64,000 nucleotides of DNA from an uncultured bacterium (GCA_905480105.1 CAJQPC010000145.1:7234-71233); one strand, 5' to 3'. Positions 6,379 to 45,493 are shown, numbered from the stretch's first letter. Notes: generated by a model from the letters alone, not told the origin. Made by a program: numbers and translations.

Positions 6379-7170
6379 CTAATCGTAGACAAATGCCTGA
6401 AAGCTGAACGCACCGGTCTCCGCATCTAAGGTTCCTTCGCCCACATGACGCCAAGAGCCATCCGATGCCCGCAGGAAGATCACGTCTTGGAGGGTGAAGC
6501 CGTCGAGATCCGCTTGGGCGGCGTAGCCCACCCCAAAGCCTTCGATGGTCTCGGTGGCCTTGGTGTCGTCGCTGCAGTCGCCCTCGAAGGTTGCGCCACT
6601 GGCGCCCGCGAGCTCCAGGGTCACATCACAGGCTGGGCATCCCTCTGCGGGCGTGCTGGCGACCTGGGGCCAAGCCCAGACACATCCGCTCAAGGCGTTG
6701 CCCCAGGCCAACAGGCCTGTGTAGGTGCCGTCGGTGATCACCCCCTCGCCGAACCAGGCGCCACCGTCGAAGGAAAAATCGCCGCTGTCCACCAGGGCAC
6801 CTTCGACAGCGAAGGGCACAAAGAGCACATCGGCTGCGCCTCGGTCGTCGACAGCGAGCACTTGGATCTGGGTGAAGGGCTGCCAGTAGTCCTCGGGCAC
6901 ATTCCAGGTGCCGCTCAGGGAGTCTGCTTCCCAGTCCATCCCCGGGGGGGCCAGGGGAAAGAGCATCTGCAGCTCGTCCCCGTTGGGATCTCGGATCTCC
7001 ACCTCCATATCCACCGAGGCTCCGACTTTGGTCTGAAGGACCAACTCCAGGTCTCTGAAGGTGGCAAAACCTAAAATGTAGCGGATGTCTTGGCCGTTGA
7101 AGCTCTGAAATCGTGGTGGGTCGTTAGGCCGCACATCGCAGGATAAAAGGGTGAGCGCGAGTAGCATCAT
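6379..7170 (-). CDS. hypothetical lipoprotein
   Basis: Internal ATGATG at 7170 gives MMLLALTLLSCD (lipobox). ATGA overlap with the stop of the upstream gene (7167-7169). The longer 329-aa ORF would overlap the upstream gene. Confidence 0.6.
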   Translation of the reverse strand: MMLLALTLLSCDVRPNDPPRFQSFNGQDIRYILGFATFRDLELVLQTKVGASVDMEVEIRDPNGDELQMLFPLAPPGMDWEADSLSGTWNVPEDYWQPFTQIQVLAVDDRGAADVLFVPFAVEGALVDSGDFSFDGGAWFGEGVITDGTYTGLLAWGNALSGCVWAWPQVASTPAEGCPACDVTLELAGASGATFEGDCSDDTKATETIEGFGVGYAAQADLDGFTLQDVIFLRASDGSWRHVGEGTLDAETGAFSFQAFVYD

Positions 7171-21965: not shown

Positions 21966-22373
21966 TCAGGCTTGCCAGCTTCGTCGCTCGGACTGTTCTG
22001 CAGAAGTCTTGCAGTCGATGCACTGGCTGGCGACGGGGCGCGCGAGCTGTCGTTTGTACCCGATGGGCTCTCCACACTCTTCGCAGCTGCCGTATTCGCC
22101 TTCAAACATGCGGGATTGGGCCGTCTGGATCTTCTTGAGCATCAGGCGGTCTCGGTCAGCCAATCGCAGGGAGAATCCACGGTCTGACTCGTTAGAGGCC
22201 TGGTCTACCGCGTCGGCGTCTACCTCGCGCTGGTCGGTGAGGTGGGAGATGTTCTGGCGGTTGGCGTTTAGAAGCAGCTCGGCCTGAGCTTGGAGCACAC
22301 CGTGGAGGTGCATCAGCTCCTCTCGGCTCAGGTACTCGTCGTCGGGCAGCGGGATTTTTTCGTCGGCAGACAT
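21966..22373 (-). CDS. dksA: DksA/TraR-family RNA polymerase-binding zinc-finger protein (paralog A)
   Basis: ATG at 22373 (MSADEKIPLPDDEYL...), 135 aa. DxxDxA tip motif (DAVDQA). CxxC-x17-CxxC (CEEC...CIDC). The rest of the 455-aa ORF is a GC-driven extension. Confidence 0.85.
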   Translation of the reverse strand: MSADEKIPLPDDEYLSREELMHLHGVLQAQAELLLNANRQNISHLTDQREVDADAVDQASNESDRGFSLRLADRDRLMLKKIQTAQSRMFEGEYGSCEECGEPIGYKRQLARPVASQCIDCKTSAEQSERRSWQA

Positions 22374-22523
22374 AACTTGCTCCAAGTCGGGGCGGGGAGC
22401 CCCGGCGCCGCGGACAATGCCCACCTGAAACCTTCCCGTCAAGGACGAATTTTTTTCAGTTTCGGGATATGTGCTAACTGTCTGGTACGTACCTATGTCC
22501 GACACCTTGTAGAAGGAGGCGCC

Positions 22524-22931
22524 ATGAGTTCTGATATTAGTGACCTTCCGCCCGCCGATGAGTACCTGAGCGAAGAGGAGGTTGTGCATCTGCGCAGCGT
22601 TCTTCGTGAACAGATTAAGCTGCTGATCGACCGCTCCCGCAACAACCTCGGTGATCTCACGGAGGAGCAGAGTGCCGACGGCGATCAGGTCGATGTGGCG
22701 GCCAGTGAATCTGAGCGCGGACACCGACTGCGGTTTGCTGAACGTGAGCGCAAGATGGTCGGTAAGATCCAGTCCGCTTTGGAGCGCGTCGCGGAGGGTG
22801 AGTACGGCATGTGCAGTGAGTGCGGTGGCCCTATTGGCCACAAGCGTCTGATGGCACGTCCTGTCGCGACCCAGTGCATCGACTGCAAGACCATGGCTGA
22901 GCGTCACGAAACACGCAGTTGGGGAAGTTGA
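22524..22931 (+). CDS. dksA: DksA/TraR-family RNA polymerase-binding zinc-finger protein (paralog B)
   Basis: ATG at 22524 preceded by AGGAGG (22514-22519). 135 aa. DQVDVA tip motif. CSEC...CIDC zinc finger. Confidence 0.85.
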   Translation: MSSDISDLPPADEYLSEEEVVHLRSVLREQIKLLIDRSRNNLGDLTEEQSADGDQVDVAASESERGHRLRFAERERKMVGKIQSALERVAEGEYGMCSECGGPIGHKRLMARPVATQCIDCKTMAERHETRSWGS

Positions 22932-23302
22932 GGGAGGAACCCTTGTAGAGGCTCGTCGCCCCATCTTCTGACCCCCAGGATCAGCCCGACAACACCTGGG
23001 GTGCCCTTGCCTTCCGCCCTGGTTTGCGTCGTACGGTCGCAGCCCGATGGAGGCAGCGGATCCCCGCCACCCAAAGGCGCAAAGTCGTCGTAGAGCCTGG
23101 AATTGGCGGTGTCGGGTTCCAGGGGGCCTACGTGCGGCTTGGTTCTTGGGCACGACGAAAGGCGGACTGCTCCTGTGCGCCGCATGCACGCTGCGGAGCG
23201 GAGGCACGTCAGTCTGGGGCGTTCCGGCGAAACAGGGGCAGGTAGAGCAGGAAGACCATCGCTCTGAGTGTACTCTCGCCCGCGATCCGCTATGGTAGTT
23301 CC

Positions 23303-23485
23303 ATGCTCCGCTCTTCGAGACAGCACCTGACACGAGAGCGCCGCGGCGGTCAGTCCGTGGTCGAGTATCTGCTCGGCATCAGCGTGATAGTCGTCGGCTT
23401 GGCCACTGGCTTTCTGATTCTGACCGACAGTGTGTCCTTGACCTTCCAGAACGCCAGCGACGTGGTCGTACGGCCCTTTCCTTGA
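23303..23485 (+). CDS. Flp-family type IVb prepilin
   Basis: 60 aa. Leader ...RERRGG followed by QSVVEYLLGISVIVVGLATGFLIL (G/xxxxEY Flp motif plus hydrophobic helix). Confidence 0.8.
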   Translation: MLRSSRQHLTRERRGGQSVVEYLLGISVIVVGLATGFLILTDSVSLTFQNASDVVVRPFP

Positions 23486-26532: not shown

Positions 26533-28767
26533 GTGTCTACGCGCATTGTCGCGGTCACGGGCGCCAGAGATGGCGTTGGACGGACCACTTTTGCAGTGAA
26601 TATGGCCCTGTCCTTGATCAAGGAGACGCGCTCTCGGGTGCTCTTGTTGGATCTGGACGGGGAGTCGGTGGGTGACTGTCAGGCGCTCTTGGGGTTGCCG
26701 CTTCAGGGGGACCAAGTTGCGCGCTCTGCCGTAGACTTTGCGCCGTATACCGACCAGCTTAGCTCCGATCAATTCCGCCAGTACATCTCGGCACACCCGG
26801 CCGGCATGGGGGTGATTCCCTTGGCACCCAGTCCCGAGCGAAGCGCGGAGCTATCCCTGGACAAGCTCCAGGAGCTCTTGGGCTTGGCATTGCCCCTGTG
26901 CGACTTCATGGTCGTGGACTGCGGTGTGGGGCTGAACGACCGCTCCTTGAAGATCTTCGAGCAGGCCGCCGGCATTTTTGTGCTCGCCACGCCAGATCTC
27001 TCAGTTCTGCGCCACACCAGGCGTCTCGTAGAGTCCCTGCAGCGTCTGCAGTTTCCAGCGGAGCTGCTCAAAGTGGTGGCCAACAAGATGCCCGCCAAGG
27101 GGGCGCTTGGTCCCGACAAGATGCTCCAGGTGCTGGGCCGCAAGGTCATGGTCACGCTGCCCAATGAACCCACCGTCGCCAACAAGGCTGAGATGGAGGC
27201 GAACCCTTTCGTGCTCGGTCAGCCCAGAGAGCGGCTGAGTCGGGTGTACGACGAGTTCGTGCGGAAGCTTGTGGAGATGGGCGCCCTGGACCGCATGGCC
27301 CTGCTTGCCAGGCCGCAAGGGGCCAGTATTGGTGGAGGACGGGGGGCCTCGCTCTCGGGAGATGCCCAGCAGGAGCTGGCGGCCTACCAGAAGAAGCGCG
27401 GCGGAAAGGCCGCAAGCGTTCAGGACATCGATCCCCGCACTCAAATCAAGATGCTGCTGCACATGCGCATGGTGGAGACGGTGGACCTAAAGAGCTTGGA
27501 GCGGGATCTGGCCGCCGATGGCGGAGATCGAGACGAGGCCCTGCGCGAGCGCATCACCCAAGCGGTTGTGGGGCTGATGGACCAGGTGGGTGCGCACATT
27601 AGCGACCGCATGGAGCGCAAGCGTATCGTCAAAGAGGTGGTTGATGAGGCTGTAGGTCTGGGACCTTTGGAAGACTTTCTCGAAGACGACCGGGTCACGG
27701 AGATCATGGTCAACGGCCGCAACGATGTGTTCGTGGAGATGAACGGTAAGCTGACCAAGACACAGGCTACCTTTACCGACGATGCCCAGCTCTTGGGGGT
27801 AATCGAGCGCATTGTTCAGCCAATTGGCCGTCGCATCGACGAAAAATCGCCGATGGTGGACGCCCGACTGAAAGACGGCTCTCGTGTCAATGCAATCATC
27901 CCACCCTTGGCCATCGACGGCCCCAGCATCACCATCCGAAAATTCAGCAGGGACCCCTTTAAGGTCAAGGACCTGGTCAAGTTCGGCTCCCTGACCGCCG
28001 AGATGGCCGACTTCTTGCGGGCCTGTGTCGAAGCCCACATGAACATCCTGATCAGTGGTGGAACCGGCTCCGGAAAGACAACTCTTCTCAACGTGATGAG
28101 CAGCTTCATCCCAAGTACTGAGCGGATCGTAACGGTCGAGGATTCCGCCGAGTTGCAGCTCAAACAGCCCCATGTGGTTCGCTTAGAGACCCGCCCAGCC
28201 AATGTAGAAGGAGAAGGGGAAGTTGGCATTCGTGAGTTGGTACGCAACACCCTGCGAATGCGCCCCGACCGCATCGTGGTTGGAGAGTGCCGCGGCGCCG
28301 AGGCCATCGATATGCTCCAGGCGATGAACACCGGTCACGATGGCTCGCTGACCACAATCCACTCCAACAGTCCGAGAGATTGTCTTTCGCGTCTGGAGAC
28401 ATTGGTGATGTTTGCCGGTTTGGATCTGCCCAGCCGGGCCATTCGTGAGCAGATGGCCAGCGCCATCCACATCATCGTGCAGCAGTCACGTCTGAGCGAC
28501 GGTTCCCGAAAGATCACTCAGGTTTCAGAGGTGACCGGCATGGAAGGCAACGTCATCACGCTGCAAGACATCTTCATCTACAAGCAGGAGGGCTTTGCTG
28601 ACGGCAAGGTCCAGGGGCGCTACATGGCCACCGGCTTTGTCCCGCGCTTTGTACAGACCCTCCAGGCCCGAGGGATTGCACTGCCTAGGGGGCTCTTTGC
28701 CCGTCCTCAAAGCGACAATACCGGCAGCAAACCCCCTGTTGGTAGACCTCCCCGGGGGCGCCGCTGA
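26533..28767 (+). CDS. fused TadZ/CpaE-like ParA/MinD-type domain + TadA/CpaF secretion ATPase
   Basis: GTG at 26533 after AGGAGG (26521-26526). N-terminal IVAVTGARDGVGRTTFAVNMA (deviant P-loop). C-terminal half has GLGPLEDFLEDDRVTEIMVNG, Walker A GGTGSGKTT (28057-28083) and the CpaF-type sequence ECRGAEAIDMLQAMNTGHDGSLTTIH. Confidence 0.85.
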   Translation: MSTRIVAVTGARDGVGRTTFAVNMALSLIKETRSRVLLLDLDGESVGDCQALLGLPLQGDQVARSAVDFAPYTDQLSSDQFRQYISAHPAGMGVIPLAPSPERSAELSLDKLQELLGLALPLCDFMVVDCGVGLNDRSLKIFEQAAGIFVLATPDLSVLRHTRRLVESLQRLQFPAELLKVVANKMPAKGALGPDKMLQVLGRKVMVTLPNEPTVANKAEMEANPFVLGQPRERLSRVYDEFVRKLVEMGALDRMALLARPQGASIGGGRGASLSGDAQQELAAYQKKRGGKAASVQDIDPRTQIKMLLHMRMVETVDLKSLERDLAADGGDRDEALRERITQAVVGLMDQVGAHISDRMERKRIVKEVVDEAVGLGPLEDFLEDDRVTEIMVNGRNDVFVEMNGKLTKTQATFTDDAQLLGVIERIVQPIGRRIDEKSPMVDARLKDGSRVNAIIPPLAIDGPSITIRKFSRDPFKVKDLVKFGSLTAEMADFLRACVEAHMNILISGGTGSGKTTLLNVMSSFIPSTERIVTVEDSAELQLKQPHVVRLETRPANVEGEGEVGIRELVRNTLRMRPDRIVVGECRGAEAIDMLQAMNTGHDGSLTTIHSNSPRDCLSRLETLVMFAGLDLPSRAIREQMASAIHIIVQQSRLSDGSRKITQVSEVTGMEGNVITLQDIFIYKQEGFADGKVQGRYMATGFVPRFVQTLQARGIALPRGLFARPQSDNTGSKPPVGRPPRGRR

Positions 28768-30899: not shown

Positions 30900-31880
30900 T
30901 CAGCCCAGCTCGTCGATCAACTCGTCTTCTATGGACGAGTCTGGTGCGTACGCTTTTTCAGGCTTGATGCCTTTGTTTACGAAAGCGGAGACGACCATGT
31001 AGAGGATGCCTGCACCCACAAAAACGAGGGAGGTCACCTGGGAGGTGCTCAAACCGCCGTCGATATACTCGGTCAGGTAGGCGGTCCCGCGCACGGCATC
31101 GCCTCGAAACATCTCCACCATGTAGCGCAGTCCGGCGTAGCAGATCAGGTACATGCCCATGATCTGGCCGTCGAACTTACGTCCATAGCGCCAGGCCAAG
31201 CTGAGCAGTCCAAAGCCGATCAGCGCGCCTATGGCCTCGTAGGTTTGCACTGGGTACAGCGGTACATCGAAGAGCGCTCCCATGCCTTGCTGAGCGTCAG
31301 GGAACGCGCCGAAGTCCTGTGGACCGCTCGTGCGGTGGTACTCGTAAGCCACGTAGGGCTTGTCCTGCAGGGAGACGACGTCGCCGCCAGGAAAGCTGAG
31401 CAGGGTGCTGGCCACGATGGAATCGGGGACGTGCTGGCCGTGGCAGCAGCCTGCAAAGAAGCAACCCATCCGCCCGATTGCTTGGCCCAGGAGAGTGCTG
31501 GGTCCTGCGATATCGGCGACCTTCCAGGGGTTCACTCCCTTGAAGTATAGGTAGCTCCATCCGAAGATGATTGCGCCGCTCACGCCGCCCATCACAGCCA
31601 TTCCACCTTGGGTCAAGTCCAGAAGAATCAGCGGGTTCTCCAGGAAGCGCTCGCGGTCTCCAGGGCTGCCCAAGAAGTGAAGCAGTCGTGCACCGAAGAT
31701 GGAGCTCACGATAGTCACGACGATCAAGGGCACGACGACGTCGGGGTTGATGCCGACCTTGCCCATGCGGGAACCCGATATCAGAGCAGCCAGTAGGAAA
31801 GCGGTGACCAGCATCAATCCGTAGGTTCCAAATAGGAGCGGATCGCCGTCGGTCTCTTGTGCGTATAGGTAGGGAAACAT
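30900..31880 (-). CDS. lgt: prolipoprotein diacylglyceryl transferase
   Basis: Start at internal ATG 31880 (MFPYLY...). Signature GRMGCFFAGCCHG. Multi-TM. Acidic C-terminal tail. Confidence 0.9.
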   Translation of the reverse strand: MFPYLYAQETDGDPLLFGTYGLMLVTAFLLAALISGSRMGKVGINPDVVVPLIVVTIVSSIFGARLLHFLGSPGDRERFLENPLILLDLTQGGMAVMGGVSGAIIFGWSYLYFKGVNPWKVADIAGPSTLLGQAIGRMGCFFAGCCHGQHVPDSIVASTLLSFPGGDVVSLQDKPYVAYEYHRTSGPQDFGAFPDAQQGMGALFDVPLYPVQTYEAIGALIGFGLLSLAWRYGRKFDGQIMGMYLICYAGLRYMVEMFRGDAVRGTAYLTEYIDGGLSTSQVTSLVFVGAGILYMVVSAFVNKGIKPEKAYAPDSSIEDELIDELG

Positions 31881-31911
31881 CAGGCCTCTTCTAACCACGG
31901 AAGTGCAGGTC

Positions 31912-32634
31912 TCACAACCCAAGATGCCCCGCATTGTCGGTAGGTGCGTCTGGTTCTCCGGTCAGGGCGCTTTTATTGCCCGTCCAGGCGGGCAGTAAAC
32001 CCATCTCGGCAAGAGAACAGAAACTCCTGCTGCCCAGGATGAGATGGTCCGCCAGCTGCACGCCCAGTCTACGGCCCAACTCGCCCACTCGGCGGGTGAC
32101 CGCTCTGTCCTCGGGCGAGGGACGGGGGTCCCCAGATGGGTGGTTGTGGGCCAGAACCAGGGAGCGCGCGCCGAGCATTAGGGCGGGTCTAAAAACCTCT
32201 CTTGGGTCCACTAAGGTGCGGTCTACCGAGCCGGTACTCAGGGCCTCCAGGGCCAAGGGACGACCGCTCGTAGAGAGGTACAGGCCATAGAGATGCTCCT
32301 GCCGCCGGGCGTTCAATGCCGGTCGAATCCAGCGCTCCGCGTCTTGGGGACACGTGATCTGCTCCGGGCCGGGGTCACGAGGAGGGACGAGGGTAAGTGC
32401 GCATGCGGCGTGCACTCGGACTGCGCGGGCGGGGCCCAAGCCGGGCACTTGGGTCAATGCACGCACGGGCACTTGAGCGATTTGCCGAGCGCCGCCAAAG
32501 CGTTGGAGAAGCTCCAGGGCAATGCGCCGGGTGCCATAGGGTCCAGAAGCTGTGCCGATGATGAGAGAGAGTAGCTCCAGCTCGCTGCTGGTGCGGGGTC
32601 CGTTCAGAGTGTAGTGCTCGCGCTGTCCATGCAT
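31912..32634 (-). CDS. radC: RadC-family JAMM/MPN protein
   Basis: HhH-like N-terminal region. JAMM motif LVLAHNHPSGDPRPSPEDRAVT. Start is either ATG 32634 or the ORF start at 32679. Confidence 0.85.
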   Translation of the reverse strand: MHGQREHYTLNGPRTSSELELLSLIIGTASGPYGTRRIALELLQRFGGARQIAQVPVRALTQVPGLGPARAVRVHAACALTLVPPRDPGPEQITCPQDAERWIRPALNARRQEHLYGLYLSTSGRPLALEALSTGSVDRTLVDPREVFRPALMLGARSLVLAHNHPSGDPRPSPEDRAVTRRVGELGRRLGVQLADHLILGSRSFCSLAEMGLLPAWTGNKSALTGEPDAPTDNAGHLGL

Positions 32635-38717: not shown

Positions 38718-39566
38718 GTGAAGAGTGAGCGCACCCTGCGTGAGGAGATGATCCGCTTCTCCCACCTCTGCTATGAGCGGCACCTGTTGGTGGCTATGGA
38801 CGGCAACCTGTCTTGCGTCCTGCCCAATGGCGACATCCTCTGTACTCAGGCGGGCTGCCACAAGGGACTGCTCACGGACGAACACCTGGTGGTCATCGAC
38901 CGTCGGGGCAAGAAGGTGCGCGGTCGGGGCAGCCCAACCTCTGAAATGGCCATGCACTTGGCTTGCTACGAGGAAAGGCCAGACTGCAAGGCCGTGGTGC
39001 ATGCCCACCCGCCCCTGGCCATCGCCTTTACCATTGCTGACCAGTCGCTGGCTCAGTGTGTGTTGCCCGAGGTGGTGCTGACCTTGGGGACTGTGCCGAC
39101 GGTGGACTACGCGACCACGGGCACCAAGGGGCTGGCAGACTCCCTGCGGCCCTATGTGCGCAACCACGACGCTGTGCTCATGGACCGGCACGGTGCGGTG
39201 ACCCTGGGTACCTCGCTCCTGGACGCCTTCTGCAAGCTGGAGACCTTGGAGCACACAGCCAAGATTACGGCCACTGCGCGCTCATTGGGTGGGATCAAGA
39301 CCCTCCCTCCCGCTGAAGCTGTGGCACTGCGCTCCATGGGCCTGAAGCGCTACGGTGGCCCCCCGAATGCGGTCGAACTCGCCGACTCGCCGGGCGCCGA
39401 CCTGCCCCAAGCCTGCTTGGTGTGCGATGGCTGTAGCGATCCCAGCCACGCGGGACTGGCCGCCGCCTCCGGAGTCAGTGCGGTGCGCGTGAAGGGGCCC
39501 GGCATGGACCAAGTGCGCCAGGTGGTGATGGAAGAGGTGCTCGCTGCTCTGAAGGGAGGAGCATGA
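38718..39566 (+). CDS. class II aldolase/adducin-family protein with C-terminal extension
   Basis: GTG at 38718 (start uncertain). Motifs DGNLSCVL, SEMAMHLACYEERPDCKAVVHAHPP, HGAVTLGTSLLDAF. Confidence 0.75.
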   Translation: MKSERTLREEMIRFSHLCYERHLLVAMDGNLSCVLPNGDILCTQAGCHKGLLTDEHLVVIDRRGKKVRGRGSPTSEMAMHLACYEERPDCKAVVHAHPPLAIAFTIADQSLAQCVLPEVVLTLGTVPTVDYATTGTKGLADSLRPYVRNHDAVLMDRHGAVTLGTSLLDAFCKLETLEHTAKITATARSLGGIKTLPPAEAVALRSMGLKRYGGPPNAVELADSPGADLPQACLVCDGCSDPSHAGLAAASGVSAVRVKGPGMDQVRQVVMEEVLAALKGGA

Positions 39567-39995: not shown

Positions 39996-40742
39996 TTAGA
40001 GGGGGGCTTCCCGGCTGATGCGGGTCAAGGTGAGCTCACCTTCGATTTCGGCAAAGCCAGCCAGATCACCGCTAAAGCCAGCGTTGAGTTCGCCCTCCTC
40101 GGAGACCTGGCCCTCCAGGTCGAGTGGCACCTCAAAGCCGAAGAGGTCCAGTGCGATGGCCCCTTGCAGGTCGCCGCGATTGTTCTCGGCGCCGATCAGG
40201 TACTCACCGTCAATGTCGATGCCTTGGATGCTCAGGAAGCAGTTGGCAGAGCCGTCGACCACCTCGCCCTCCGAGTCGATGGTCAGGGTGGCCGCACCGG
40301 AGCATGCGGTGGAGAGCTGGTCGGTGATCAGGTCGACCACAACGTTGCCCGTGTAGGTACCGGCGTAGACGCTCTGCACCAGAACACCACCGACGGTGGA
40401 GGAGACGCGGTCCCCATTGGGTAGAATGGCCTTTGCCTGTAGGTCGTGAACTCCGATGGGCAGGGTGTCGTCGAACTCTGATCCAGTGGGGTTCCAGTCG
40501 CTCGCCACGCTGCTTTTCCAGGTAATCTCGTCGAAGTCGATGATCTCCCCTTCTGCGGATTCTAGGTGGGCGCTGAAGGTGGTTCCCTCTTCGAGAGGCA
40601 CGAAGCTGGCGGAGAGCGGCGAGGTCACGATGAGCTCAGCTTGGCTCCAGTCAATCTCTTCAAGCTCCTCGAGAACGGAGGTCTCTTCTCCCTCCAGCAC
40701 CAAGTAGTCGTTGGTGCAAGAGAGCAGGGCGAGGATCAGCAT
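39996..40742 (-). CDS. hypothetical lipoprotein
   Basis: Internal ATG at 40742 gives MLILALLSCTN (lipobox). Acidic, beta-rich. Confidence 0.55.
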   Translation of the reverse strand: MLILALLSCTNDYLVLEGEETSVLEELEEIDWSQAELIVTSPLSASFVPLEEGTTFSAHLESAEGEIIDFDEITWKSSVASDWNPTGSEFDDTLPIGVHDLQAKAILPNGDRVSSTVGGVLVQSVYAGTYTGNVVVDLITDQLSTACSGAATLTIDSEGEVVDGSANCFLSIQGIDIDGEYLIGAENNRGDLQGAIALDLFGFEVPLDLEGQVSEEGELNAGFSGDLAGFAEIEGELTLTRISREAPL

Positions 40743-44044: not shown

Positions 44045-44200
44045 GAAACCTCCTGAACAGGGTTTCGGATCAGGGGGCGAGGTGCTTGAGCCCGCGAATG
44101 AGTAGGAGGGTGGTCGGATTCCAAAGAAACAGCATCCCAGGGGTCTCTGGGGCGGGGATCGGTTTCACCAGAATGGACAGGCCCAAGACGTTGATGCCAG

Positions 44201-44725
44201 CTACTCCTCGGAGTCCAGGGTCAGCAGAGCGTCCCGTAGCTCCTCGTAGTCACCGTTCTTTCCCAGGTCGTACAGGGTCAGGTTGAACACGCCGGCGATC
44301 TTGCCGCTGGGGTCCACCAAGACCACATCCCGGTAAGAGACACTCCACTGTGCCCACACCGTCTGCTCTTCGGTGTCTTGAAGCCAGGGCAGTTCTCGCC
44401 CTTGGGTGAAGCCCTCGTTTCCGCTGTCAAAGCCCACCTCGTTCACACCGATGATGGCGATGGAGTCGGGAAGCTCGGCTTGCATCTGATCCAGGTAGCC
44501 AAACTGGCTACTGCAGTAGGGTCACGTCGCGTGTCCGAAGTACCAAGCGGAGACCCGGTCCAAATACTGGGAGGGGCCCACCAAGCTCTCGAAGCTCTCG
44601 CTGGTGGTGTTGACGTCCTCCAGCTCAAAGTCTGGCGCCTCTGCGCGGTCTCCCAGGGGCGACGTCAGCAGGGACGCCAGGGGATCGGAGCTGGGGGAAC
44701 TACAGGCCAAAGTCAGCAAAAGCAT
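44201..44725 (-). CDS. TlpA/redoxin-like thiol:disulfide oxidoreductase lipoprotein, candidate selenoprotein (in-frame UGA at 44522-44524, U-P-Y-C motif)
   Basis: ORFs 44522..44725 and 44201..44485 are in the same frame, separated only by TGA. Read-through gives MLLLTLACSS...APDFELEDVN...VSAWYFGHAT-U-PYCSSQFGYLDQMQAEL..IAIIGVN..., a complete thioredoxin fold with U at the first Cys of CxxC. Confidence 0.7.
44492..44513 (-). promoter_or_regulatory. candidate bacterial SECIS hairpin
   Basis: mRNA CAGUAGCC-AGUUU-GGCUAC(C)UG starts 9 nt after the UGA. 8 bp with one bulged C. 5-nt loop containing GU. Loop G lies about 18 nt from the UGA. Confidence 0.55.
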
Positions 44726-44734
44726 GGGGGTCCT

Positions 44735-45493
44735 TTAATCTAAACGGTCAAAGAAGTCTCTGAGCAGGGAGCCGTCCCAGCTCTCGTCCGGGCCGTGGCC
44801 CATGCCCTCGACCACGTTCAGAGTGCTCTCTAAGCCCAGGCCTTCCATTCGGGTCTGGGCATCGCGTGCAGCGTCTACCCATCCGGCGTCCTCCGAGCCG
44901 GCCACGTGATGGACCGGGACGCACTCCAGCGATGCGAGTAGGGCTTCATCCGTCTCCTCTCCGAAGGTACCCGGTAGGCCGGTCAGGCTGCGGAAAGGCG
45001 CTGGGGTGTCCACGGCCAGGGGATAAGCAATGCGGCCGCCGGATGAGTGACCAACCAGGTGTACCTGCGTGCTGTCGTGATCGAAGCACCCCTGGAAGGC
45101 GGCCAAGCTGTCCAGGGCCACTTGGGCTCGGTCGCTGCCCGCGCCGCTGGTGTGAGGGACGATGACCCAGGTGTTTTCTACCTCGGGCATTTTGGCCAGC
45201 CACTGAAAGTAGTTGTTCGTTGCGCTGCCGATGTCGGCAGGTCCTCCGGGCAGGAAGACGATCACGGGCAGAATCTGGGTGGGTTCTACGGGGACGCTGA
45301 GCAAGTAGCTTCCCTGGGTTCCGTCGATCTCCAGCAGACCCTCCTCTAACTCGGGGCAGGTGTCTAAGGGTTCAGTGGCCAGTGGAAGCGGCTCAGGGCA
45401 GCCCTCATCGATCACGCTGGTGTCATTTGTGGCGTCTGGGGTGTCGTTGGGCTCGGCGGGGCCTGCGGTACAGGCCAGGAGTAGAAGCAGCAT
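44735..45493 (-). CDS. alpha/beta-hydrolase (esterase) lipoprotein
   Basis: Internal ATG at 45493 gives MLLLLLACTAG. Nucleophile elbow VHLVGHSSGG. Its stop lies 9 nt upstream of the redoxin gene start. Confidence 0.7.
   Translation of the reverse strand: MLLLLLACTAGPAEPNDTPDATNDTSVIDEGCPEPLPLATEPLDTCPELEEGLLEIDGTQGSYLLSVPVEPTQILPVIVFLPGGPADIGSATNNYFQWLAKMPEVENTWVIVPHTSGAGSDRAQVALDSLAAFQGCFDHDSTQVHLVGHSSGGRIAYPLAVDTPAPFRSLTGLPGTFGEETDEALLASLECVPVHHVAGSEDAGWVDAARDAQTRMEGLGLESTLNVVEGMGHGPDESWDGSLLRDFFDRLD

Follow-up and report, generated by a model that had tools for sequence, protein, structure and literature searches.

A UGA-interrupted thioredoxin-fold gene in DNA from an uncultured bacterium is a probable selenoprotein gene of the NF053656 family

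A gene with an in-frame UGA codon was analyzed in a 64-kb stretch of DNA from an uncultured bacterium (GCA_905480105.1, CAJQPC010000145.1:7234-71233), herein referred to as the window. Comparison with homologous sequences indicates that this locus, found on the minus strand at positions 44201..44725, is very probably one gene. Its predicted product is an exported, probably lipid-anchored thioredoxin-fold selenoprotein of 174 residues, belonging to the family NF053656, and a selenocysteine insertion sequence (SECIS) element is predicted inside the coding sequence. Among the observations that support this interpretation are the presence of the same TGA in all inspected homologous loci and the covariation of a short hairpin located shortly after it. 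The original prediction is upheld both in what it observed and in how it interpreted the locus, with small corrections to the length of the hairpin and to the grounds for accepting it.

Translation of the minus strand from 44725 to 44201 gives one frame of 174 sense codons, including the codon for selenocysteine (Sec, U) at position 68, followed by a TAG stop codon at 44203..44201. The sole internal stop in this frame is the TGA at 44524..44522. The list of open reading frames (ORFs) splits the locus into a 67-aa fragment (44522..44725) and a 94-aa fragment (44201..44485), both on the minus strand. The original prediction described these fragments as lying in the same frame and being interrupted by TGA alone, and the retranslation agrees with it exactly. 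Each fragment was also said to be incomplete by itself; indeed, β1/α1 and the redox motif lie upstream of the TGA and the remaining thioredoxin fold lies downstream, and no Shine-Dalgarno sequence precedes the ATG at 44485, as had been claimed for the second fragment. Around the TGA, the read-through product is ...RVSAWYFGHAT*PYCSSQFGYLDQMQAEL..., with the redox centre WYFGHAT-U-PYC; a longer stretch of this product is ...DRVSAWYFGHAT*PYCSSQFGYLDQMQAELPDSIAIIGVNE.... The UGA (44522..44524, minus strand) would be read as U68, which opens the U-P-Y-C redox motif. The UGC codon at 44513..44515 (minus strand) encodes Cys71, the predicted resolving Cys of this UxxC motif. Direct reading of the sequence also reveals a Shine-Dalgarno-like AAGGA (44731..44735, minus strand), followed after 5 nt by the ATG at 44725..44723. 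An earlier start is excluded, because the AAGGA overlaps the TAA of the upstream gene (44737..44735) and this gene uses the same frame.

For analysis of the TGA column, one genome per bacterial species was scanned with a degenerate DNA pattern built from the C-terminal motifs YRDVV-N30-VFNLT. Since this pattern covers the C-terminal motifs, the scan was uninformed by the active site. In total, 31 loci were found in Myxococcota, Planctomycetota, Verrucomicrobiales, Eisenbacteria, Spirochaetota, Thermodesulfobacteriota, and gammaproteobacterial metagenome-assembled genomes (MAGs). The Myxococcota carriers include Nannocystis exedens DSM 71 (NZ_NETK01000001), N. punicea FL3 (NZ_CP114040), and Nannocystis sp. 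RBIL2, whose assemblies have no MAG label. Thirty of the scan loci had enough upstream DNA and were analyzed together with loci L001 and L002 and the window. TGA was found at the same column in all of these 33 loci, which represent at least six phyla, in the single frame WYFxHxT-TGA-xYCxxQFGxL, and the closest relative, L002, is no exception. Such conservation is far beyond chance. Homologues genuinely ending at this codon had been named as a finding that would count against Sec; instead, the frame continues through the conserved TGA in every locus.

Protein databases provide the complementary picture. A search with the U-to-C read-through product as the query gave 29 matches, nearly all of them 95-103 residues long and starting at the first Met past the UGA column (MQAEL..., MQQDV...). 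The full-length database entry P0002 shows W at this column; the underlying DNA has TGA, so this W reflects a gene caller applying another code. A profile of the C-terminal half was also searched against 1.84 billion representative proteins, yielding 957 clusters at E <= 1e-3 and 733 clusters at E <= 1e-10. For about 140 of the 150 best representatives, the match starts at residue 1-4. These are fragments called directly past the UGA, in line with the expectation that standard gene callers split the gene. Nine of the best 150 representatives are N-terminally extended, with Cys at the UGA column in seven, W in one, and an unrelated N-terminus in one. The full-length Cys homologues (P0078, P0093, P0106, P0123, P0159, P0161, and P0166), which had been anticipated for a U-to-C search, have the motifs HADCQIC, AATCTYC, KATCSYC, HANCNYC, ASTCTYC, YATCGYC, and HADCSYC. 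The predicted exchange of Sec and Cys at this column is the classical Sec/Cys signature, and the representative clusters of NF053656 are estimated to comprise about 95% UGA forms and 5% Cys forms.

Pseudogenization or an assembly error would explain the TGA differently, as a TGC or TGT codon for Cys that was mutated or miscalled in a broken or decaying gene. Such a change requires a single base, and Cys forms of the family do exist, but the same TGA recurs in 33 of 33 independently assembled loci from several phyla and is followed by a covarying hairpin. Moreover, the ratio of nonsynonymous to synonymous substitution rates (dN/dS) reveals no decay. Comparison of the window with its close relatives L002, L014, and L015 gives dN/dS values of 0.15-0.21 for the part before the TGA and 0.21-0.22 for the part after it; comparisons among these three relatives give 0.14-0.30. 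Thus, purifying selection is the same on both sides (dN/dS of about 0.15-0.22), and the low values argue that both halves are translated in frame and kept by selection. The conservation of the TGA, the covariation, and the dN/dS values effectively refute pseudogenization and assembly error, and the probability left for them is minimal.

The hairpin was compared in an ungapped alignment of 32 sequences extending from the UGA to position +48, in which the helix is formed by columns 14-19 with columns 25-30. In the window, the predicted SECIS core hairpin (44495..44511, minus strand) has a stem of 6 bp, formed by 44511..44506 and 44500..44495, with AGUUU at 44505..44501 as its apical loop. The stem begins 10 nt downstream of the UGA; the distance from the A of the UGA to the loop G (44504) is 18 nt, as originally calculated (about 18 nt). 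Bacterial SECIS elements show an 11-nt spacing in fdhF, and distances of 16-37 nt from the UGA to the loop are given in the fdhF and bSECISearch literature. The loop has the form A-G-U-U-Y, with invariant A and G; four sequences have AGGCU.

The base pairs of the core vary in a compensatory manner. Thus, the pair 15-29 is represented by UA (13), GC (5), AU (3), GU (3), and CG (2), the pair 16-28 by AU (16), GC (8), GU (3), and UA (1), and the pair 17-27 by GC (24), CG (3), AU (2), and UG (1), while the pair 18-26 is CG in 28 sequences, with AU, GC, and UA also present. Covariation of the 6-bp core is 0.378 versus 0.124 +/- 0.019 for shuffled alignments, none of the 500 shuffles reaching the observed value; with the 3' partners slid by 1-3 columns, it is at most 0.13. 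Covariation of the core helix is therefore far beyond chance, and RNAalifold independently predicts the identical helix. Compensated stems include GUAGCC/GGCUAC in the window, GGAGCC/GGCUCC in L009, GUGGCC/GGCCAC in L012, ACGCAC/GUGCGU in L011, GAGGUC/GACCUC in L008, and GCGACC/GGUCGC in L032. The residues encoded by the varying stems are S-S...G-Y, R-S...G-S, R-G...G-H, H-A...V-R, R-G...D-L, and R-D...G-R. Many of the compensatory changes are nonsynonymous, so that here the protein sequence adapts to the RNA.

The hairpin was first described in a longer form, CAGUAGCC-AGUUU-GGCUAC(C)UG, located at 44513..44492. Its six core pairs are upheld by the covariation and by RNAalifold, but the conserved element does not extend to the outermost pairs (C44513-G44492 and A44512-U44493, across the bulged C), both of which fail to form in 20-23 of the 31 homologues. 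A possible lower stem (44480..44516, minus strand) was additionally predicted by RNAalifold from the 32 sequences; this weak candidate pairs 44516..44513 with 44483..44480 (YUGC/GCAG) and involves the codons for Cys71 and Met-Gln. In the window, three of its four pairs form. The lower stem is conserved with almost no covariation, so conservation of the protein could account for these pairs equally well.

Decoding of the UGA as something other than Sec, either by a reassigned code (Trp or Gly) or by near-cognate read-through (Trp, Cys, or Arg), would also preserve the frame; W in the entry P0002 is compatible with it, as is the fact that no Sec machinery was seen in the 64-kb window. The W of P0002, however, stems from TGA translated with another code. 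The confident ORFs of the window end with TGA in 19 of 41 cases, with TAG in 17, and with TAA in 5; TGA being the commonest ordinary stop, the genetic code is standard. Together with purifying selection on both halves, this normal use of TGA rules out both a decaying pseudogene and a reassigned code. Additionally, the UGA coincides with the nucleophile of a CxxC-type centre, a site at which homologues contain Cys, a conserved structured element with an invariant loop G lies at SECIS distance, and the NCBI curators model NF053656 as a selenoprotein. Decoding other than by Sec is thus considered very unlikely.

According to another explanation, the annotated split would be real, with a 67-residue lipopeptide ending at the UGA and a 94-residue ORF translated separately from the ATG at 44485, or never translated. 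Nearly every homologue is annotated as split by gene callers, and Met-Gln after the hairpin is conserved; the conserved AUG-CAG, however, may instead be the 3' side of the lower SECIS stem. Neither part is a complete domain, the frame and the spacing are conserved across phyla, the Cys homologues are single polypeptides, and a Shine-Dalgarno sequence is lacking at the internal start. Two separate products are therefore extremely improbable, and a single selenoprotein gene is the preferred interpretation.

The read-through protein scores 191.7 bits (E = 5.8e-57) with the NCBIfam model NF053656.1 (redoxin_TUGYCR, "TUGYCR motif thioredoxin fold (seleno)protein"), whose curated cutoff is 100 bits. 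The match spans positions 2-145 of the 146 model positions, and all 23 tested family members match this model as well. By this match, the window protein joins a family already curated as a selenoprotein. The gene is thus, by sequence, a predicted new member of a catalogued, uncharacterised family, and its novelty is not at the family level. No experimental characterisation of NF053656 was found, and the literature search revealed no paper using the name TUGYCR and none on Nannocystis with selenocysteine. The family is also absent from the table of prokaryotic selenoprotein families in a review of May 2026.

Many family members (e.g., P0024, P0027, P0123, P0161, and P0166) have long C-terminal extensions with Asp-rich repeats, such as DSDGDRLPDDWE and DVNDDGHVSPIDALLIINELN, and a further C-terminal domain. 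By eye, these repeats are dockerin- or thrombospondin-type-3-like, which suggests surface or extracellular attachment.

A multi-module organization was observed at L235:1225-3915 (plus strand; ENA ERZ25039480 contig_45769, 336 kb), where about 890 codons in one frame specify a lipoprotein signal and, after it, five tandem family modules. Modules 1 and 5 each have an in-frame TGA (WFFGFAT*PTCRSQFG and WFFGLSS*GECRGQFG), and modules 2-4 have the degenerate sites ATQTRDR, ATDTAC, and ATDPAC. Gene callers broke this frame into 79, 612, and 178 aa. The predicted product is probably a two-Sec, multi-module protein.

The fold was analyzed by profile comparison and structural modeling. The family profile has weak matches (E 0.01-0.02) to PDB sequences of thioredoxin/nucleoredoxin-like, TlpA/DsbE-like, and GPx7 chains, and the profile alignments put U on the first Cys of the CxxC of these chains (CPPC, CPYC, or CSWC), for example YFSAHWCPPCRQ and FWASWCPYCRD versus YFghatCgYCrsQ. 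This agrees with the earlier placement of the UGA at the N-terminal redox Cys of a TlpA/redoxin layout. The resolving Cys had been placed three residues further; Cys71 is invariant in alignment A4 (C46 in domain numbering) and aligns with the second Cys of the CxxC. An AlphaFold2 model was made of the full-length homologue P0002, with the Sec position modelled as Trp. Its predicted local distance difference test score (pLDDT) is 66 and its predicted template modeling score (pTM) is 0.66, with a well-predicted core. Foldseek relates this model to TlpA/ResA/DsbE/CcmG/Etrx, Bcp, and GPx structures, among them 3GL3, 4NMU, and ResA, with template modeling (TM) scores of 0.5-0.67. Thus, the fold predicted from the model of the homologue P0002 is a TlpA/ResA-like thioredoxin fold.

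By analogy with the standard bacterial mechanism, the ribosome would arrive at the UGA at 44524..44522, and the 6-bp hairpin with its A-G-U-U-U loop, situated inside the coding sequence 10 nt downstream, would act as a bacterial SECIS. This element would recruit SelB-GTP-Sec-tRNA(Sec), so that selenocysteine would be inserted and termination would not occur. The product would adopt a TlpA/ResA-like fold, with its redox centre U-P-Y-C placed at the N-terminal end of helix 1. Outside the cytoplasm, it may act as a selenol/thiol oxidoreductase alternating between selenolate/thiol and selenenylsulfide.

The possible chemistry of this centre is linked to an invariant Arg. Arg132 (CGG codon, 44330..44332, minus strand), a candidate catalytic residue, lies within the invariant Y-R-D-V-V and is itself invariant in alignments A1, A4, and A5. 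In the profile alignment with the TlpA-like 2LRN (E = 0.02), the Y-R of the family aligns with the F-P of the cis-Pro loop, and Pro at the cis-Pro position was found in no family member in the family alignments. Arg instead of cis-Pro is a peroxiredoxin hallmark. In a low-confidence alignment with Escherichia coli BCP (hhalign probability 27%), YRDVVILD aligns with HRISFLID, which contains the peroxiredoxin Arg, and the same alignment places U on the peroxiredoxin Thr and Cys71 on the peroxidatic Cys. The peroxidatic motif PxxxTxxC itself is absent from the family. Because the invariant Arg replaces cis-Pro, reduction of a peroxide, a sulfenate, or a similar oxidised substrate appears somewhat more likely than plain disulfide exchange. 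A broader proposal for NF053656 is a nearly Sec-obligate, extracytoplasmic, selenoperoxidase-like family with a hybrid site that combines U-x-x-C with a peroxiredoxin-type Arg in place of cis-Pro. Here, a part of the name-giving motif (around C-R-S-Q-F-G) would possibly be dictated by the SECIS, and multi-module two-Sec lipoproteins such as L235 would be included. This proposal is tentative, and we consider it rather unlikely to hold as a whole.

Several observations weigh against the proposed interpretation of the locus. No tRNA of any kind, hence no tRNA-Sec, was found by ARAGORN in the 64-kb window, and selA, selB, and selD are absent from the 20 window ORFs scanned with Pfam. The window hairpin alone is not thermodynamically unusual, its 51-nt fold having -11.6 kcal/mol versus -11.09 +/- 2.59 kcal/mol for shuffled sequences (z = -0.20); the support for the SECIS is comparative, not thermodynamic. 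A check of the locus with SECIS models, proposed in the original prediction, failed in the case of Rfam: no SECIS match was found in the whole window at gathering thresholds or in the region 44100-44800 at E <= 10, the only hits being two chance miRNA-like ones. Rfam SECIS models are lineage-specific. The Pfam matches of the protein are below gathering thresholds, with 22.6-23.3 versus 26 bits for AhpC-TSA (PF00578) and 17.1-17.4 versus 26.6 bits for Redoxin (PF08534). The structural model is that of the homologue P0002, with 43 low-confidence N-terminal residues and Trp in the place of Sec. The signal peptide in the window is very short and uncharged. As for the peroxidase-like function, the idea rests on the two weak alignments with 2LRN and BCP, and the second Sec-containing module of L235 has His, not Arg, at the position of Arg132.

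The Sec machinery was also sought beyond the window. In 32 homologous loci, ARAGORN likewise gave no tRNA-Sec. SelA does occur in related lineages, namely in Kofleriaceae, Haliangiales, Polyangiales, and Phycisphaerales MAGs. The scan with a GC-rich SelA motif gave at least 120 matches. A Kofleriaceae SelA query gave at least 80 loci; among those listed for this query, none comes from the carrier genomes. In L155, selB is not adjacent to selA. These SelA scans neither support nor refute a Sec trait in the genomes carrying the family.

The signal sequence of the window protein is the short, lipobox-like M-L-L-L-T-L-A-C (44702..44725, minus strand), identified by direct reading and predicted to mediate export. 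The first fragment was originally described as carrying a lipoprotein signal. In the window this signal is unusually short; most homologues, from other lineages, have canonical lipoprotein or secretory signals (...LLLLTFGGC in L006, ...LLLPAC in L012, and ...AILTGC in L013). The window protein and three close relatives start with M-L-L-L-(T/A)-L-A-C. Similar short lipobox-like starts were observed in at least five window ORFs: MLLLTLAC at 44725(-), MLLLLLAC at 45493(-), MILALLTAC at 39563(+), MMLLALTLLSC at 7167(-), and MLILALLSC at 40742(-). The lgt gene is also located in the window, at 30900-31934. Because four other ORFs start alike and lgt is present, the short signal probably represents the lipoprotein style of the lineage. 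Thus, the sequence predicts that the window protein is probably exported and lipid-anchored.

Upstream of the selenoprotein gene, a gene for an α/β-hydrolase-like lipoprotein was found (44735..45493, minus strand; weak Pfam match to Abhydrolase_1). Its likely start is MLLLLLAC at 45493, while the ORF list extends it to 45646. The stop codon of this gene lies 9 nt before the ATG of the selenoprotein gene, and the two genes are probably co-transcribed. Other neighbours include genes for a sulfatase, an HDOD protein, and ABC transporters. The lineage-specific order sulfatase-hydrolase-selenoprotein is common to the window, L002, L014, and L015; no neighbour shared across phyla was found by all-against-all BLAST of the ORFs from 32 loci.

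Antisense to the selenoprotein gene, and overlapping it, is a 121-aa ORF (44378-44743, plus strand) that is also seen in 19 homologous loci. Its simplest explanation is a by-product of sense-strand conservation in GC-rich DNA, not a gene. A scan based on G+C content at third codon positions, too noisy for use, gave no other TGA-interrupted frame with a redox motif in the window. Elsewhere in the window, the ORF at 26533-28767 (plus strand) encodes 744 aa, in which a ParA/MinD-like P-loop domain is fused to a T2SSE secretion ATPase. A 455-aa ORF at 21966-23333 (minus strand) has DksA domains at the C-terminus only (residues 340-447), so that its N-terminus is either greatly extended or called too far upstream. 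Some taxonomic labels of the homologous loci are also worth mentioning. L015 (JBLHMA010000034.1), labelled Cognaticolwellia sp., shows synteny with the window and with L014 ("uncultured proteobacterium") and is a close relative of both; it may be a mis-binned contig, because the gene content of the window seemed unlike that of a gammaproteobacterium. L005 and L034 bear the label Enterobacterales, which was taken as given.

With regard to annotation, both window fragments belong merged as one selenoprotein gene, and the locus illustrates that reading of a sequence alone can recognise a genuine recoding event mishandled by standard gene callers. No kind of bacterial selenoprotein is commoner than the UxxC thioredoxin-fold type, and a specialist would therefore not be surprised by this one. 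With 957 representative clusters, NF053656 itself is a large family; it is distributed over many phyla and appears to be exported and almost always Sec-containing. The Arg in place of cis-Pro provides a concrete hypothesis of peroxidase-like versus disulfide-reductase function. As the family is found in Nannocystis assemblies including that of DSM 71, it seems accessible to 75Se labelling, proteomics, and enzymology, provided that these strains can be cultivated for such work.

Among known systems, iodothyronine deiodinases (PF00837) were considered and rejected. The FGHATUP of the window protein resembles FGSATUP(PF) by motif only, and no T4_deiodinase match was found, either with the window protein (E <= 1) or with the 23 family members (E <= 0.1). 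At the RNA level, a small apical loop containing G is a common trait of bacterial SECIS elements (PMC1088965), and the window hairpin shares such a loop, at SECIS distance, with elements of the E. coli fdhF type. Unlike those elements, it has a conserved core of just 6 bp and lacks the conserved bulged U.

Within NF053656, the window protein keeps the Sec position, the T before it, and the Y-C after it. The name-giving motif T-U-G-Y-C-R is replaced by T-U-P-Y-C-S in the window protein and its three closest relatives, and across members the two varying positions contain G/S/A/V/P and R/S/H/V/Q. Published UxxC thioredoxin-fold selenoproteins include the "Prx-like thiol:disulfide oxidoreductase", the "Redoxin family protein (PF08534)", and the GOS "Prx-like 2/3" (PMC13188914; PMC2398784). 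Compared by description only, these families likewise have UxxC in a distant peroxiredoxin/thioredoxin-like fold; they are mainly metagenomic, abundant in marine samples, and of unknown function (PMC13188914; PMC2398784).

The BCP/PrxQ peroxiredoxins resemble the family through AhpC-TSA, the best, sub-threshold Pfam match of the window protein, which covers the whole model. In contrast to these peroxiredoxins, the family has HxT-U-x-Y-C, i.e., U-x-x-C, and not P-x-x-x-T-x-x-C, with Sec at the position of the peroxiredoxin Thr in the low-confidence BCP alignment. With the TlpA/ResA/CcmG (DsbE)/Etrx group (cd02966) of extracytoplasmic thiol-disulfide oxidoreductases, the window protein shares fold, size, place of the redox motif, and secreted or lipoprotein location, and the best structural and profile matches are of this type (3GL3, 4NMU, ResA, Etrx1/2, 2LRN, and 3HDC). 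It differs from TlpA-type proteins in having Sec for the first Cys, an invariant Arg for cis-Pro, and no conserved cytochrome-maturation or Msr neighbour. The CxxC located at the start of helix 1 in TlpA, ResA, and DsbE is matched by the predicted U-P-Y-C of the window protein.

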